From an uncultured Nitrososphaerota archaeon (lineage in GTDB: Archaea > Thermoproteota > Methanomethylicia > Methanomethylicales > Methanomethylicaceae), in the NCBI GenBank assembly GCA_964634735.1, contig CAZWMA010000002.1:5652-69651 (forward strand): a stretch of 64,000 bases of DNA. Reading direction: 5' to 3'. Each line of letters opens with the position of its first letter. Positions within the stretch are counted from its first letter, which is position 1. Below, in pieces: positions 13,446 through 63,735 of the stretch. The notes under the pieces were generated by a model. It did no database searches. It was not told where the DNA came from and saw only the letters and a program-made list of their open reading frames with translations. The position numbers and the translations under genes were made by a program.

Positions 13446-13765
13446 GGTGCGACAGCGCCCCAGAAGTGAACGGCCCATACCATTGCCCTTTGGGAGAGCA
13501 GGCATCCATCCCGTTATCCTGCGAACGGCACTGTCCAGACTTAGGGCTGCTTCCTTCCGGATCTAACCCGGTTCGCCTGGCGCGCGGAAAGACCATCCCT
13601 CCGGATAGGCTTTTACCGCTCCAACGCCCCCACAGGGCGAGACTTCCACGCCTGCAACCCTAGGAACAATAGCTGGTTCCATCGCCTCCCGGAGTTACTG
13701 GCCCTACCTTGACGACCGTTTGTAGTGGAGAGGAGGCCGAACCCTCCGGCCCTACCTGCCGCACC
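13446..13765 (-). ncRNA. signal recognition particle RNA (7S / SRP RNA)
   Basis: The reverse complement contains the helix-8 motif CCGGAAGGAAGCAGCC, almost identical to E. coli 4.5S GGUCCGGAAGGAAGCAGCC. The 5' GGTGCGGCAG and 3' CTGTCGCACC form a terminal helix. It sits next to tRNA-Ser, as in many archaea. Confidence 0.7.
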
Positions 13766-28532: not shown

Positions 28533-28660
28533 GTGGCCGCCAGCTTCCGCGGGTTCCCGGACCCTCTCGGCGTCCAGTACCGCCACAGACGTATGGTGGT
28601 TTAACTACCGTGTTCGGAATGGGAACGGGTGGTTCCCACCAACTATGGCCGGCGCACCGC
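28533..28660 (-). rRNA. 5S rRNA, unlinked from the 16S-23S operon
   Basis: Reverse complement reads ...CCATAG...CCCATTCCGAACACGGTAGTTAAAC...GTACTGG...GAGAGGG...GGGAAC, about 125 nt. A T-rich tract follows the 3' end and a TTTAAAAA box lies ~25 nt upstream. Confidence 0.8.
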
Positions 28661-32555: not shown

Positions 32556-32656
32556 TGGAGCCTCAGGCGGGATTCGGACCCGCGACCACCGCCTGTTTGG
32601 GCAGGGTTCCGCCCGGCTTACCAAGGCGGTGCTCTACCAGGCTGAGCCACTGAGGC
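32556..32656 (-). tRNA. tRNA-Thr(GGT) with a ~24-nt intron at 37/38, CCA encoded
   Basis: Acceptor GCCTCAG/CTGAGGC, D-arm GCTC..GAGC, anticodon stem CCGCC/GGCGG with loop TTGGTAA interrupted by 24 nt; T-loop TCCGAAT. Confidence 0.75.
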
Positions 32657-51984: not shown

Positions 51985-52059
51985 TGGTGGACTGGGTGGG
52001 ATTTGAACCCACGGCCCCCTGCGTGCGAGGCAGGTGATCTGCCGCTAATCTACCAGCCC
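51985..52059 (-). tRNA. tRNA-Ala(CGC), CCA encoded
   Basis: G3:U70 identity pair, anticodon loop CTCGCAC, T-arm GTGGG-TTCAAAT-CCCAC. Confidence 0.8.
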
Positions 52060-52262
52060 TTACACCGAGCAATACCCACGACAAATTAAAAGTTTATTGT
52101 TTGTTTGCAAAGCATTAGTGCGAGGAGGCTGATTGGATGCTCATAAAGACGTTGAAAGCTTGCGTATCGTGTTATTTAGAAGGTAAAAAAGAGAGGCGAC
52201 AGCAAAAATGAATATATTTGGGCAAAAAGGATAAATCGAGAGAGCAAAATCTACGCATATAA

Positions 52263-52337
52263 GGGCTCGTAGCTCAGCTTGGTATGAGCACTCGACTGAT
52301 AATCGAGTGGTCGAGGGTTCGAATCCCTCCGGGCCCA
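52263..52337 (+). tRNA. tRNA-Ile(GAT)
   Basis: GGGCTCG..., D-arm GCTC-AGCTTGGTAT-GAGC, anticodon loop CTGATAA, T-arm GAGGG-TTCGAAT-CCCTC. Confidence 0.85.
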
Positions 52338-52355
52338 CTCAGTTCTCGTTCAGTT

Positions 52356-52697
52356 TTACCGCTTGATCTCAATCATCTTCAGCTTGAAGATGAGTGTCTT
52401 GCCGGCTAGCGGATGGCTTCCTTTGACGCCATATGCCTTCGCTGGCGGGATGGAGACTTCTTTCTCCTCATTTACTTTCATTCCTATAAGCGCCTCTTCA
52501 AAGCCCGGTATGACTTGACCTGCACCAACCTTGACCTGAAGCGGTTTGTAGTCCCTTGAAGGGTTGTAGAGCCCGGCTTTTTGGGCTTCTTTTATCATAG
52601 AGGTGTCGAAGACCTTACCACCGGGGAATTTACCAAGATAATGGACCCGTACAGTATCGCCTTTTTGAGCTGACAAGACTTGAGACATCTTTTTCAC
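52356..52697 (-). CDS. FKBP-type peptidyl-prolyl cis-trans isomerase
   Basis: VHYLGKFPGGKVFDTS...PGFEEALIGMKVNE motifs. Confidence 0.8.
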   Translation of the reverse strand: MKKMSQVLSAQKGDTVRVHYLGKFPGGKVFDTSMIKEAQKAGLYNPSRDYKPLQVKVGAGQVIPGFEEALIGMKVNEEKEVSIPPAKAYGVKGSHPLAGKTLIFKLKMIEIKR

Positions 52698-53212
52698 CTA
52701 TAAGCTGTATTTTCAATACTAAATTCACTATCTAGTAAAGGCGTATATTATTTTGCTAACCTGTGAGTGTTACTTAGATGTGTTTTGCCTTAACTTTGAA
52801 AAAGGAACGCTAAGGACTCCTTAATCTTCAGATAAAAGTTACACCGTTGTAAGCAATTCTTTGAACATTCGATACCCGTCAATTTATTGAGCTGTATAAA
52901 ACAAACAGTCAAAAAAAATCACTGTTATAGTAAAAGTTCAAGGCGCAACACATATATTGAAGTCTCATAAGTAAGGGAGGTGCACGAACTGTAGACAAGT
53001 GCTAACGACAGCCGCGACCTATCGGCGGCGCTGATCGTGACCTTACGGGCCCTAGCCCGAGGGGTGATCGATCGCTCTCCGGTCGCGGTTATAATCATGG
53101 GGACCTGAAAAACGCCGGGGCAAACGCCCTCGGGTCGGATTTAGGTCTTACATTGGACTCGATATCCAACCACGAAATGTGGTTGGGGTTATAACGGGCC
53201 TTGCGGACGTTA

Positions 53213-54709
<1,497 letters not shown>

Positions 54710-54902
54710 ATGTTTGACCCGCTGAACCCCAACCACACGTGAAGGAATGGATATCGAGTCCAATTCATGAGAAGTGATGCAACTGTGGAGGAAACTCCTC
54801 AGTGAAGGGCGTAGCAGGTGGGCCTGACCGGGCCCTACTTGCGATTAGCGCCATGCATAGGTTTCAGTGTTTCTGACACCAGACTAGGTTTAGTAGAAAC
54901 CG

Positions 54903-57927
<3,025 letters not shown>

Positions 57928-58123
57928 CCTACTAGACCTGGGTGATATCAGAAAACTGAAACCGTGCATGGCTTGCTTTCATTTCTAAGAACTGCAACTT
58001 TTGGATGTAATATACAGTTTTTATGGAAGCAATTCGTGTTAATCAAACCGTTGCTTAGCGGACGCTAGGCAAAATAGCCCGGTCAACATAATAATCATAC
58101 GGAATCAAGCGGATGGATCCAAA

Positions 58124-58651
58124 TTGCCGTTCACGCCATACCATCTTGGACCAGCACTTGCGGTCGGGTTAATCCTAAGGAGGTGGCTGCACGCTCCAAC
58201 TCTAATAGTAGCGAGCGTTGCGCTAGACGTAGAGCCACTACTGGTAATTGTATTGGGGCTCGGAACCAGCCTCCACGGGATCGCCCACACGTTTCTTGCG
58301 GCCATCGTTGTTGGCACAGCTTGCGGACTTATGATGCGCCTACTGCAGAGCAGGCTCTCAGCAGTGTTCCGGGCATTGAGTCTGGAAACCGAAGGGAGGC
58401 TGCCAAACGGGAGCAAACCGGGCATTGAGGCGTTTGTGGCAGCGGGCGTGATGGGCAGTATGCTTCACGTTCTCCTTGATGCTCCAATCTATGAAGACAT
58501 ACAGCCGTTCTTCCCTCTCGTATCCAATCCGCTTTATTTGCCCGCTAGCGCCAACATGATGTACAGCGTCTGCTTGTGGCTGGGGTTGGCAGGTCTAATC
58601 ATCTACGGAACAATATTAATCTCGAAATTACGGAGCGGCAACCGGCTATAG
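58124..58651 (+). CDS. integral membrane protein, hypothetical
   Basis: Five or six hydrophobic segments immediately downstream of the 23S. Confidence 0.35.
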   Translation: MPFTPYHLGPALAVGLILRRWLHAPTLIVASVALDVEPLLVIVLGLGTSLHGIAHTFLAAIVVGTACGLMMRLLQSRLSAVFRALSLETEGRLPNGSKPGIEAFVAAGVMGSMLHVLLDAPIYEDIQPFFPLVSNPLYLPASANMMYSVCLWLGLAGLIIYGTILISKLRSGNRL

Positions 58652-58654
58652 AAA

Positions 58655-59030
58655 ATACGCAGGGCGTTCGACGAGCACATTTATCTCTGAGCTATGCGGG
58701 AGGTTACTGGGCGAGTTGGTGAGCGGCTCACGGGCCTCTGGCGAAAGCCTCAGGTCTGAGGAAACTCCATCCTCCATGTAGGACCGCGATGCCATGAGGC
58801 ATAGGGGGAGACCTCTGCTCTTGGATCAGAAACGGGACGCCCGCCGGCGGATGTCAATGGCGCGAGGGCAACTCGCAGAGGATGCTGGCGGTAACGATGA
58901 AACGGCCAAACCGCGGGGAGAAAGGGCGAATAGGAGCTGATGACGCCTACAGCAGGCTCGGGTAGCCCGCATAGTCAAATGCTGCTTAAAACAGAAGGTG
59001 GGTTACGGCCAACACGCCCATTATTTTAAG
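58655..59030 (+). ncRNA. rnpB: RNase P RNA (candidate, archaeal type A-like)
   Basis: GAGGAAACTCCATCCTCCATGTAGG resembles the P4 region GAGGAAAGUCCGGGCUCCAUAGGG. The 3' ACAGAAGGTGGGTTAC resembles ACAGAACCCGGCUUA. GGGCGAATAGG resembles GGCCAAAUAGG. The 5' AACUCCAUC can pair with the 3' GGUGGGUU as an 8-bp P4 with a bulged U, including a compensatory G-C to C-G swap. Confidence 0.6.
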
Positions 59031-59068
59031 CAACACACCTGCTTGCCCTCACCCTTACGCTTAAGATA

Positions 59069-59528
59069 TCATAATCGTTCATTTATTTCTGAAAGCGGTC
59101 TTTGATGAAGACGCAGTATATTTTCCGCTTCTAGGTATCTCTTTATTGGTAGTTCATCTTCTTCAGGCGTCAATATTGCCTGAATCCGTGGATGTTTACC
59201 CTTGAGCAACTTTATTGCGTCTTCTTCCGTTGTAACCAATACAAGCCTACATTTTTCACGCGCCCACTCGTTTTTCCCGCAGTCTTTCACCACTTTACCT
59301 TTTTTCGCCATATTGTGGATTACCTTCACTACCCAAGCTGAAACTCCGAATTGCCCACGCCAATCTATAATTTGTCAACTTCAACGCTTCTTCACAGGCT
59401 GGGCATTTCACAATACTATTTTTGTCCATTCCAATACCCTCCTTCTCAACTCTTTCTTTCTGCAAGAGAGCAATCATTTTCATTTCATTAAGTATATTAT
59501 CACTGATGATAGTTCTAGGACGGCTCAT
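59069..59528 (-). CDS. hypothetical zinc-ribbon protein, apparently split by a frameshift
   Basis: ORFs 59295-59528 (CPACEEALKL) and 59069-59329 (CGKNEWAREKC) overlap in different frames and read as one protein. Confidence 0.3.
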
Positions 59529-59583
59529 TTAAAATTTTTAATAGAATTAACGTTCTTGACCACCCTTGAAGGATCAGTTTGGC

Positions 59584-60105
59584 TTATTTCGAGGTTTTTC
59601 GCATGGTGTAACAATACCCAAAAAAGAAGCCGGCGATTATGAGTAGGCGAACAGCCAAATTTATTGCCATTATAGTGGACGTCATCTGGTACTCGACAAA
59701 CCCCATCTTGACTATCCAAGAGAACCGGTCCTCAGGCCCCAGCCCGAATAGCCACCCCCACCATTCAATCAAGCTTCCGTCATAGTCTTTGAATACATAT
59801 TTAGCATAAAACGGGTAAGCGAAGTCATTTGCCAGGCTTGTTATCCTCCCGAGAACGTAGACGATGACTATCGAGAGCGGCCCACGGAAGAGTACAAGGG
59901 AAAGGAAAGGCATAATGTAGAAGAATTCAAGCCATATATGGTATGCCGGAGGAACGTCAGCATTTATCAGGGCAGTTGAAAAGACATAATATTCGATGTA
60001 GTTTACGAAGACGGCGCCGTATATAATGGCAAAAACCAACAGTGCAATGAGCTCTCTTCCGCTCACTGGCGCGAAGATATCTTTTAAGCTAAAGCGCATG
60101 CCCAT
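59584..60105 (-). CDS. integral membrane protein, hypothetical
   Basis: About five TM segments. Confidence 0.4.
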   Translation of the reverse strand: MGMRFSLKDIFAPVSGRELIALLVFAIIYGAVFVNYIEYYVFSTALINADVPPAYHIWLEFFYIMPFLSLVLFRGPLSIVIVYVLGRITSLANDFAYPFYAKYVFKDYDGSLIEWWGWLFGLGPEDRFSWIVKMGFVEYQMTSTIMAINLAVRLLIIAGFFFGYCYTMRKTSK

Positions 60106-60215
60106 TTTTACCTACTTTTCGCAGCTTTGGAGCCCAGAAGGACTTTATGGCTCCATGTAGCTAAAACCGGGCTTTGTGCCCTAAAAAATTTATTGTTACT
60201 GGAAACGAGGTGCGC

Positions 60216-60521
60216 TCAGTAGATTTTGCCGTTAATCTTGGCATCAGACTCTATAATGATTATCCCGGCATCCTTGTAGATTGAGCCATTCACAGCGCCT
60301 TTTATGCGGACTTCGCCGCCTTTGTTGTAGATGTTACCATTCACTGTACCGAAGAGCTCGGCTTTAGACCCCTTCTCAAGGACGAGATCCTGCGAGATGA
60401 CGCCGTTTAAAACCAACAGCCCTTTATCGGTAACTATTGCGCTACCACCGACGGTTCCATTTAAGGTTATTTCTTCGGATACTTTAAAGTCGCCGTTCAT
60501 CTTGCGATTTTCGATTTTCAT
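60216..60521 (-). CDS. bactofilin-like (polymer-forming cytoskeletal, beta-helical repeat) protein
   Basis: About 101 aa of repeated G-x-V/I-x-G-x-V/I-N-G motifs (LNGTVGGSAIV, LNGVISQDLVL, LFGTVNGNIY, IKGAVNGSIY, INGKIY). Confidence 0.5.
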   Translation of the reverse strand: MKIENRKMNGDFKVSEEITLNGTVGGSAIVTDKGLLVLNGVISQDLVLEKGSKAELFGTVNGNIYNKGGEVRIKGAVNGSIYKDAGIIIIESDAKINGKIY

Positions 60522-61154
60522 GCTTAAATTCCTCTTTTGGAGCGTGAATTAAGAACTGCCTCGATTAATGCCCCTCCAAATCGGTTGTTGGAAGGCAACA
60601 CCGGTTTGAAGCTATAGCATATAATATGTGCAGGCATTTATGAACGCTTCGCATTTCCGCCTAACGGCATAAGATTATAATTTCCTTGCGCAAATTACCC
60701 TATTTCTCGTAACTGTATCTAGAATCTATCATAGAAATTCACCGGCGTTTTGCCCAAGCAGAAGCATAAGCATGAAGGCCGTTATTGGTGTGCGTGATTA
60801 CTTGATATAGCACCCGTCGCCTTGATTTTCCCTTATCATGGTTGGATATGTTTGACGACCGTCTCAAGATATTGTATGCGAATCTGTGCATGCTTCGCCC
60901 ACATCATAAACAAGCCCGGAGGGGACATCGTTTTCAAGGATGGGGCTTTGCCATCTTCGTTCAAGTTCTTGGCAACGCGTATTCCTCGATATCCCTCCTT
61001 AAGGAGGAGGCATTCTCGCATTGTGGATGATTTGATGCAAAGCGTTGCCCCAATATCCATTCCAGCTTGCAGATTGTTGTGCTGACTGTTAGAAACACAT
61101 CAACTAATCTGTGTTAGGAACGCTTTAATTGGAGTTCTTCCGGGCATTAAAGTA

Positions 61155-61661
61155 TCATATGCCGTATAGTTGCCGGTACTCCTCTGAGATCTTCCTTACA
61201 TTAGCCTCGTCTTTTGACTGGCAATATAATGAGAGCGGTTCTTTATTCAAGGAGAGGAATGTGCCCCCCCACTTTACCTTCGAAAGCAGCTCGAGAGCGC
61301 TATCCTCAAATCCACATATCAATAGGGCGGCGGATATCGCTTCCAAGGTGCTCAATTTGAACGGCACGGCATAGTTCGTCGGGTTGGATGCGAGCAGAAA
61401 AGGCAAAAGTCGAGGCTTTAAGCGAGCAGAGAGACCTTCATGGGCTATCCGATTCCATGAGCAGTCAACGGCAGATATGCCAGCGACAGCAATGTCGTTA
61501 CGATCATTAGGAGAGAGCACTCTTTCGCTGAAGGGGTATAGAAGTATGGAGCCGTGGGGGAGGGCGGAGAGTCTGTAGACGATTTTTGCGAGCCCTAAAT
61601 GCCCCATTTTTGTAGCGGTGCACTTCTTCGGGTCGCACTCCTTTTTGTTGTATATGAACAC
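61155..61661 (-). CDS. tsr3: Tsr3-family 16S/18S rRNA aminocarboxypropyltransferase
   Basis: N-terminal CDPKKCT motif and the length of Tsr3/DUF367. Confidence 0.7.
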   Translation of the reverse strand: MFIYNKKECDPKKCTATKMGHLGLAKIVYRLSALPHGSILLYPFSERVLSPNDRNDIAVAGISAVDCSWNRIAHEGLSARLKPRLLPFLLASNPTNYAVPFKLSTLEAISAALLICGFEDSALELLSKVKWGGTFLSLNKEPLSLYCQSKDEANVRKISEEYRQLYGI

Positions 61662-62000: not shown

Positions 62001-63308
62001 ATGCCAATCTTCCATTTAGGGCTTGATGATACCGATTCGCTAAAAATGGGATGCACGACGTACATAGCAGCCCTTTTAATCGACAAACTCCAGAATGGGT
62101 CGACCTTTGTTGACTATCCAAATCTGATTAGGCTGAACCCCAATATCCCTTGGAAATCAAGAGGCAATGCTGCAATATGCCTTAGGTTTGAGTCGGATTG
62201 TGAAGCAGAAGAGTTGCTTGAGATTGCGGAGGAGTTTGTTGAAGAATACAGAGACCGCGGTGATCCGAAGAATCAGCCCGGAATCGCCATATGCCAATCA
62301 GAGACGGTGCCGGCAAAAGTAAAAGAATTCGGCAAGGAGGCACTGAGCGGAGTCCTATCCATTGATGATGCCAAAAAAGTTGCAGAGTCCTACGAAATAA
62401 AGTATCGCACGATAAGGGGCGGGAGGGGCATCGTAGGCGCACTGGCAGCTATTGGAAATACCCTTGAGGAGGATCACACTTACGAGCTTGCGGTCTACCG
62501 CGGTAAAGATTTTTGGGGGAAGAAACGCCGGGTTGATTTTGCAAGCGTGGAAAGGTTCGACAGGATGGCGGGAGACAAAACTTTCAACAATATTGATACG
62601 GAAGGCAAGAGGTTGCTAATCACGCCGCATGGTCCAGACCCCGTTTTGTTTGGCGTTAGAGGGGAAGAGCCACAAACCCTGCTGAAGGCGTTGGAGACGG
62701 TAAAATTTGAGGGGGGCGAAAGGTGGGTAATGTACCGCTCGAACCAAGGTACAGACGCGCACCTATCCAACAAAGTAAGGATTTGCAACCTAAAACCGCA
62801 TATGGCTGCCGTTATTGAAGGTGACGTGTCCAAAGAGCCGACCGCAATTAAGGGCGGTCACGTAATATCAAGACTTAGTGACGGATCTGGCGAGGTGGAT
62901 ATCGCGGCATATGAGCCGTCTTCCAGCTTCAGGATGGCGCTTGCAAGACTAGCGGTAGGCGATACGGTGCGCGCATATGGCGGCGTCAAGCTGCATCGTG
63001 ATGAGGAGCTAACGATTAATTTGGAGAGGCTAGAGGTCCTAAGTTTGGCGAAGGTGAAGGGGAGAAACCCAGAATGCCCGGATTGCGGGAAAAGAATGAA
63101 GTCTGAAGGCAAAGAGAAAGGATACCAGTGCAAGCGCTGTGGAAAAAAGGCGCATGTGCCAGTGCCGGGAGCGAGAAGGGAAATTAGTGTAGGCAATTAC
63201 CTTCCGCCGCCCAAGGCAATGCGGCACCTCACTAAACCACCAAAACGTTACGGGCAAGAAAAAGCAAGGTGGTCAGGCAATATCGGCAGGTATTATGGTG
63301 TTTTCTGA
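62001..63308 (+). CDS. tiaS: tRNA(Ile2) 2-agmatinylcytidine synthetase TiaS
   Basis: N-terminal LGLDDTDS motif, the length, and a C-terminal zinc ribbon CPDCG...CKRCG. Confidence 0.75.
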   Translation: MPIFHLGLDDTDSLKMGCTTYIAALLIDKLQNGSTFVDYPNLIRLNPNIPWKSRGNAAICLRFESDCEAEELLEIAEEFVEEYRDRGDPKNQPGIAICQSETVPAKVKEFGKEALSGVLSIDDAKKVAESYEIKYRTIRGGRGIVGALAAIGNTLEEDHTYELAVYRGKDFWGKKRRVDFASVERFDRMAGDKTFNNIDTEGKRLLITPHGPDPVLFGVRGEEPQTLLKALETVKFEGGERWVMYRSNQGTDAHLSNKVRICNLKPHMAAVIEGDVSKEPTAIKGGHVISRLSDGSGEVDIAAYEPSSSFRMALARLAVGDTVRAYGGVKLHRDEELTINLERLEVLSLAKVKGRNPECPDCGKRMKSEGKEKGYQCKRCGKKAHVPVPGARREISVGNYLPPPKAMRHLTKPPKRYGQEKARWSGNIGRYYGVF

Positions 63309-63637: not shown

Positions 63638-63735
63638 TGGTAGCGGGGGGTGGATTTGAACCACCGATCTCGGGGTTTCCCAGCCTACACGGGGCATATG
63701 AGCCCCGCGGGATAACCTGGCTACCCTACCCCGCT
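63638..63735 (-). tRNA. initiator tRNA-Met(CAT) with a ~20-nt intron at 37/38, CCA encoded
   Basis: AGCGGGG 5' end with an A1:U72 pair, three consecutive G-C pairs in the anticodon stem (CGGGG/CCCCG), CTCATA[intron]A anticodon loop, T-arm GGTGG-TTCAAAT-CCACC. Confidence 0.75.

Follow-up and report, generated by a model that had tools for sequence, protein, structure and literature searches.

A Methanomethylicus-like archaeon carries a type A RNase P RNA gene downstream of its 23S rRNA gene

Does the segment at 58655-59030, which follows a 23S rRNA gene, encode the RNA subunit of ribonuclease P, and is the gene a complete one with a transcription unit of its own? RNase P is the ribozyme responsible for 5′ trimming of tRNA precursors, and its RNA is universal and well characterized. 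A sequence-only reading of this DNA had proposed an RNase P RNA here, citing four conserved-looking motifs and a P4 helix, and had suggested a search with the archaeal RNase P model of Rfam as a check. We scanned the whole window, by which we mean the entire 64-kb stretch of DNA that was analyzed, with Rfam 15. The archaeal model, RF00373, matches 58711-59017 on the forward strand with a score of 202.5 bits (gathering score, 84; E value, 7.5e-59), so that the proposed check is passed by a wide margin. The match spans model positions 1-288 of 288 and is not truncated. It is the single RNase P match in the 64-kb window, and within the Rfam clan the archaeal model is the best match for this interval. 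The gene can be entered as follows.

58711-59017, forward strand: RNase P RNA gene, archaeal type A, 307 nt from the 5′ end of P1 to the 3′ end of P1 (RF00373)

We conclude, with a probability of about 0.97, that this locus encodes the ribonuclease P RNA of a Methanomethylicus-like archaeon and that the RNA is of the standard archaeal type A; we see no evidence against the identification. The identification made from the letters of the sequence is thereby confirmed, as is the remark that no notable protein ORF covers the region, since no ORF of more than 50 aa overlaps 58711-59017. The interval originally proposed does contain the gene, but it also takes in ∼55 nt of upstream flank and 13 nt of downstream flank, which likely hold a promoter and a terminator. 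The RNA is an ordinary gene of an already known kind. The useful outcomes are the exact boundaries, the type A class, and the assignment of the window to a Methanomethylicus-like genome; beyond the right annotation the importance is small, because with an Rfam match of this margin any routine annotation pipeline would label the gene.

All four motifs that had drawn attention to the locus can be read in the sequence where they had been placed.

58758-58768, forward strand: motif GAGGAAACTCC
58773-58782, forward strand: motif TCCATGTAGG
58924-58934, forward strand: motif GGGCGAATAGG
58991-59006, forward strand: motif ACAGAAGGTGGGTTAC

The 11-mer GAGGAAACTCC is not diagnostic of RNase P RNA when taken alone, because a second exact copy lies at 54788-54798 in the 16S-23S spacer. 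We note that at this second copy GGAG-GAAA-CUCC can form a small GNRA hairpin. In the gene itself, the first and last motifs contain or overlap the two strands of P4.

58763-58771, forward strand: P4 5′ strand, AACUCCAUC, with bulged U58766; the conserved GAGGA of CR-I (58758-58762) precedes it
58997-59004, forward strand: P4 3′ strand, GGUGGGUU; the conserved ACAGAA (58991-58996) precedes it

The pairs are A58763-U59004, A58764-U59003, C58765-G59002, C58767-G59001, C58768-G59000, A58769-U58999, U58770-G58998, and C58771-G58997, with U58766 left bulged between the third and the fourth. The canonical 8-bp P4 with a single bulged U is thus present as it had been drawn. One assignment did not survive: in UCCAUGUAGG, which had been taken for J4/5, CUCC is the 5′ strand of P5, and the UGUAGG that comes next is that of the P6 pseudoknot.

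For comparison with related RNAs, one genome per GTDB species was scanned for GAGGAAACTCCNNCCTCC, which returned at least 120 loci. Rfam found a full-length RNase P RNA in 19 of the 20 archaeal loci tested, with scores of 120-233 bits, and the window RNA was aligned with these 19 relatives to give a set of 20 Thermoproteota RNase P RNAs. The Rfam consensus structure was carried over from the row of the window RNA, P4 was added as a pseudoknot, and pairs were then counted. Of the 120 loci listed, 79 gave an RNase P RNA match to a profile made from the 20-sequence alignment; these are mostly from Nitrosopumilales, Nitrososphaerales, Sulfolobales/Desulfurococcales, Bathyarchaeia, and Methanomethylicia.

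Among the matches listed, the best is that of Ca. Methanomethylicus mesodigestus V1 (MAGS01000023.1; L055:339-645), with 93% identity over all 307 nt; the next is a Methanomethylicaceae MAG (L116) with 85% identity over the 262 nt aligned. The 16S and 23S rRNA genes of the window are 98.4% and 98.1% identical to those of V1, and the 16S value suggests that V1 and the organism of the window are different species of the same genus. Methanomethylicia is the class of Thermoproteota formerly named Verstraetearchaeota, and a literature search, not exhaustive, found no paper on RNase P RNA in Verstraetearchaeota.

P4 is 100% paired in all 20 aligned sequences, and the GAGGAAA block, ACAGAAG, and GGGTTA are invariant among them. 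The sixth pair of the helix is GC in nine sequences, UA in seven, and AU in four, and the seventh is CG in 14, UG in three, UA in two, and GC in one. The third pair is C-G in the window RNA, where the Rfam consensus has g...c, and this inversion had been read as the kind of covariation expected of a real P4. The argument holds in substance. The pair is C-G in 20 of 20 sequences, and because the scan pattern fixed only the 5′ C, the uniform matching 3′ G provides independent support for the third pair. The inversion is, however, not special to this gene: the C-G pair is common to at least 79 Thermoproteota species and is a widespread trait of the lineage rather than a peculiarity of the RNA described here.

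The remaining parts of the structure follow from the Rfam alignment.

58731-58758, forward strand: P3 hairpin, with a 13-nt insertion relative to the Rfam consensus that forms an extended stem with a GAAA cap
58777-58782, forward strand: P6 pseudoknot 5′ strand, UGUAGG, pairing with 58946-58951
58946-58951, forward strand: 3′ strand of the P6 pseudoknot, CCUACA, within the loop that caps the P16/P17 hairpin
58784-58915 (ends approximate), forward strand: specificity domain with P7, P8 (loop AUGA), P9 (GNRA loop GAGA), and P10-P12, from the structure line of the Rfam alignment
58924-58968, forward strand: P15, the L15 internal loop (GAAUAG and GGGUA), and the P16-P17 hairpin, from the Rfam structure and covariation

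The 13-nt extension of P3 is present in the window and in V1 and is absent from L116. The specificity domain carries the conserved CAGAAACG and GAUGAAACGG blocks. By analogy with bacterial type A RNase P RNA, for which the role is established, the tRNA 3′ end would be expected to bind to the GGU on the 3′ side of L15. We also observe that the P12 region (58845-58885) reads AUGUCAAUGG ... CAGAGG in place of the AUGnnnAUGA ... CUGAGG found in the Rfam consensus and in most of the aligned RNAs; the consensus form resembles a kink-turn of the kind bound by L7Ae.

These elements define the class of the RNA. In archaea, an RNase P RNA of type A has both domains, one of type M is without P8, L15, P16, P17, and P6, and in type T most of the specificity domain is missing and P2 has 3 bp; L18 is absent in archaeal RNase P RNAs (PMC3579882). 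The window RNA has a complete P7-P12, a 6-bp P2, P8, a GNRA-capped P9, a P15 internal loop together with P16, and P6. Because the full specificity domain, P8, L15/P16, and P6 are all present, it is type A and not type M or type T. Type M is ruled out by P8, L15, P16/P17, and P6, and type T, the form of about 200 nt with a 3-bp P2 found in Thermoproteaceae, is ruled out by the length of 307 nt, the full specificity domain, and the 6-bp P2.

We then ask how the gene is transcribed. It had been described as immediately downstream of the 23S rRNA gene. It is indeed downstream, but between the end of the 23S gene at 57925 and the first base of the RNase P RNA at 58711 lie 785 nt, which hold several T-rich tracts and an ORF.

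58124-58651: 175-aa hydrophobic membrane-protein ORF between the 23S rRNA gene and the RNase P RNA gene, with a weak YdjM/DUF4184 match
58680-58687, forward strand: TATA-like box TTTATCTC, centered ∼27 nt upstream of the first base of P1, a likely archaeal promoter
59021-59027, forward strand: T-rich tract TTATTTT just after P1, a likely but weak candidate for the end of transcription

Both signals were assigned by sequence resemblance in a comparison of three Methanomethylicaceae genomes. A distance of ∼27 nt is the usual spacing between an archaeal TATA box and the transcription start. The stretch GCACATTTATCTCT is identical in the window and V1, and L116 has a similar GCATTTATTTTT ∼2 nt further upstream, with the surrounding sequence differing in all three genomes. 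A comparable A/T-rich tract lies 3′ of the gene in V1 and in L116. The comparison with V1 also reveals a difference in orientation: the cassette made up of the gene, the TATA-like box, and the T-tract (58675-59035, corresponding to L055:303-663) is reversed relative to the rRNA operon, while the 6.4 kb at 51987-58356 are collinear and the outer flanks are unrelated. Either the two species, which belong to one genus, differ by a local rearrangement, or the MAG contains an assembly error. With its opposite orientation in V1 next to 6.4 kb of collinear sequence, the RNase P RNA gene and its flanking signals act as a self-contained cassette. Judged from these sequence features, the gene is most likely its own transcription unit, starting at or near 58711 and ending at 59021-59027.

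The strongest competitor to an independent gene is a shared transcript, in which the RNase P RNA would be the tail of a 16S-23S-ORF-RNase P RNA transcript of the rRNA operon, would be cut out of it, and would owe its position to function. The gene does lie on the strand of the rRNA operon, 785 nt after the 23S gene, and same-strand placement 104 nt to 5 kb after the 23S gene recurs in other Thermoproteota (L070, L083, L050, L052, L007, L079). Set against this, the ORF at 58124-58651 and several T-tracts intervene between the 23S gene and the RNase P RNA gene, three genomes conserve the TATA-like box, which is spaced as expected, and TATA-like sequences are found even in the 104-nt spacer of L070. 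In V1, the cassette faces the rRNA operon, so that co-transcription is impossible there, and 71 of the 79 RNase P-bearing loci listed have no 23S gene in the same 8-kb block. We therefore consider a shared transcript unlikely; the rRNA operon is probably transcribed without the RNase P RNA gene.

Placement after the 23S gene is nonetheless found in several lineages. Among the matches listed, a 23S gene is in the same 8-kb block in 8 of the 79 RNase P-bearing loci, counting the convergent V1 locus, and seven of these eight have the RNase P RNA gene 104 nt to 5 kb downstream on the strand of the 23S gene (L070:4530-8000, L083:1-1027, L050:3510-7492, L052, L007, L079, and 54906-59017 of the window). 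The distances are 104 nt and 5.0 kb in Bathyarchaeia, 586 nt, 731 nt, and 3.3 kb in Nitrososphaerales, 3.1 kb in Nitrosocaldus, and 785 nt in the window. Within 8-kb blocks, the linkage was not seen in the loci of Nitrosopumilales or of Sulfolobales/Desulfurococcales, and a nonexhaustive literature search returned nothing in titles or abstracts on an archaeal linkage of 23S rRNA and RNase P RNA genes. The recurrence in Methanomethylicales, Nitrososphaerales/Nitrosocaldales, and Bathyarchaeia might reflect functional coupling, either through regulation shared with ribosome synthesis or through read-through co-transcription, although we regard this as doubtful. Read-through could occur in lineages such as that of the bathyarchaeal L070, where the gap is just 104 nt. 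The alternative is that the placement is an inherited gene order with no functional meaning.

Beyond the gene, the sequence at 59000-61100 has 39-47% G+C against 52% for the window and contains small ORFs without Pfam matches, a 173-aa hydrophobic ORF, and a borderline bactofilin-like ORF of 101 aa; the region has no counterpart beside the gene in V1. An inserted element at 59000-61100 was considered, but no integrase, repeat, or Pfam signal supports one. On the far side, the neighbors include genes for a ribosome-biogenesis protein of the Tsr3 type (61155-61661) and for TiaS (62001-63308), which modifies tRNA.

The structure of the RNA at 58711-59017 is supported by covariation across Thermoproteota. 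Over the 20 sequences, 93.4% of 1464 pair cells are standard pairs, as compared with 35.9-46.0% in slid controls in which the 3′ partners were moved by 1-3 columns. Changes on both sides are found in 55 of 76 pairs, and none of 500 shuffles reached the observed values. P1, P2, and P3, the helices whose absence would have spoken against the original identification, are 89.0%, 99.1%, and 88.9% paired, with both-side changes in 8 of 10, 5 of 6, and 3 of 5 pairs, respectively. P5 is 98.8% paired and shows both-side changes in none of its four pairs, the helix being nearly invariant. P6 is 93.1% paired against 24-51% in its slid controls, with both-side changes in all six pairs. P8 is 99% paired with covariation in 5 of 5 pairs, and helices 6-12, which make up the specificity domain, are 70-100% paired with many both-side changes. 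P15 (helix 13) is 90.0% paired with both-side changes in three of four pairs, and helix 14, in the P15/P16-P17 region, is 91.6% paired with both-side changes in all five. The minimum-free-energy fold of the 307 nt is no more stable than those of shuffled sequences (z = -0.67). For a G+C-rich RNA with pseudoknots such a comparison has little power, and the covariation carries more weight.

These data bear directly on whether the RNA might be a decayed or redundant copy, with the functional gene or a protein-only RNase P elsewhere in the genome. The window shows 64 kb of the genome, and a second copy or a protein-only enzyme may lie beyond it; moreover, three Rfam pairs are nonstandard in the window RNA (C-A, A-G, and C-A, in the P10-P12 region). 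However, the match covers the full length, none of the universally conserved blocks is damaged, its 202.5 bits fall inside the 120-233-bit range of the 19 relatives, and the sister species V1 has an ortholog at the same locus. Relative to L116, at 85% identity, 14 of the 15 changed pairs are still standard, seven of them by a double, compensatory change, and this preservation of pairing argues against a decaying copy. We judge a pseudogene to be very improbable. A different class of RNA or a chance match, such as the fluoride-riboswitch match at 58895-58956 (RF01734, 16.2 bits, E 0.11), can be given next to no weight, as its score is far below the gathering score of 34, the 202.5-bit RNase P match encloses it entirely, and the resemblance is a chance one that rests on the common string GCUGAUGAC..CCUAC.

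Several other RNA genes in the window deserve mention. The rRNA operon at 53213-57925 consists of 16S and 23S only, with a 196-nt spacer (54710-54905) that has no tRNA; the 5S rRNA gene (28535-28656) is unlinked, ∼24.5 kb away on the strand opposite to 16S-23S. An archaeal SRP RNA lies at 13450-13761 on the reverse strand. The TiaS gene, on the forward strand, is ∼330 nt from a tRNA gene of 95-98 nt at 63638-63735 on the reverse strand, for which ARAGORN reads the anticodon region as "cata". This tRNA probably carries an intron and a CAU anticodon and may be tRNA-Ile2 or tRNA-Met. TiaS is the agmatidine synthetase that modifies tRNA-Ile2(CAU), and the two neighboring genes could thus encode an enzyme and its substrate. 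Three tRNA matches, at 440-528, 32559-32656, and 63641-63735, are 89-98 nt long against a model of 71 positions; ARAGORN cannot assign two of them and misses one. Their lengths suggest intron-containing tRNA genes, which are common in Thermoproteota.

With regard to protein partners, a Pfam scan of the 49 window ORFs of 69-820 aa, which represent 64 kb of the genome, found none of Pop5, Rpp30, Rpp21, Rpp29, or L7Ae; the genes for RNase P proteins are normally elsewhere in archaeal genomes. Archaeal RNase P functions together with the Pop5-Rpp30 and Rpp21-Rpp29 pairs (PMC3378863, PMC3035440). By analogy with the characterized archaeal enzymes, the window RNA would assemble with these two pairs and with L7Ae. 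Its catalytic domain consists of P1-P5 and P15-P17 and includes the P4 and P6 pseudoknots; the bulged U and the active-site nucleotides, which are universally conserved, sit in the P4 pseudoknot. The specificity domain, P7-P12, is complete. The assembled enzyme would be expected, again as in characterized archaeal systems, to cleave the 5′ leader from pre-tRNAs by metal-ion-dependent hydrolysis.

Among known systems, the RNase P RNA of V1 is closest to the one described here. It is likewise 307 nt long, shares the helices, with the 13-nt extension of P3 among them, and the upstream TATA-like box, and adjoins the rRNA operon and a YdjM-like ORF. The two RNAs differ at 21 positions, and the loci differ in the orientation of the cassette relative to the rRNA operon and in an unrelated outer flank. 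With the archaeal type A RNAs of RF00373, such as those of Methanothermobacter thermautotrophicus and Pyrococcus furiosus, the window RNA shares P1-P5, P7-P12, P15/L15/P16-17, the P4 and P6 pseudoknots, and all conserved blocks. It departs from the RF00373 consensus in the third pair of P4, which is C-G where the consensus has G-C, in a P3 that is 13 nt longer, and in the P12 region, which reads AUGUCAAU...CAGAGG as opposed to AuGAuGAU...cuGAgg. Archaeal RNase P RNAs are without P13, P14, and P18 and depend on several proteins. The bacterial type A M1 RNA of E. coli has, like the window RNA, an 8-bp P4 with a bulged U, the GAGGAAA...UCC / ACAGAA...UUA core, and the GGU of L15.
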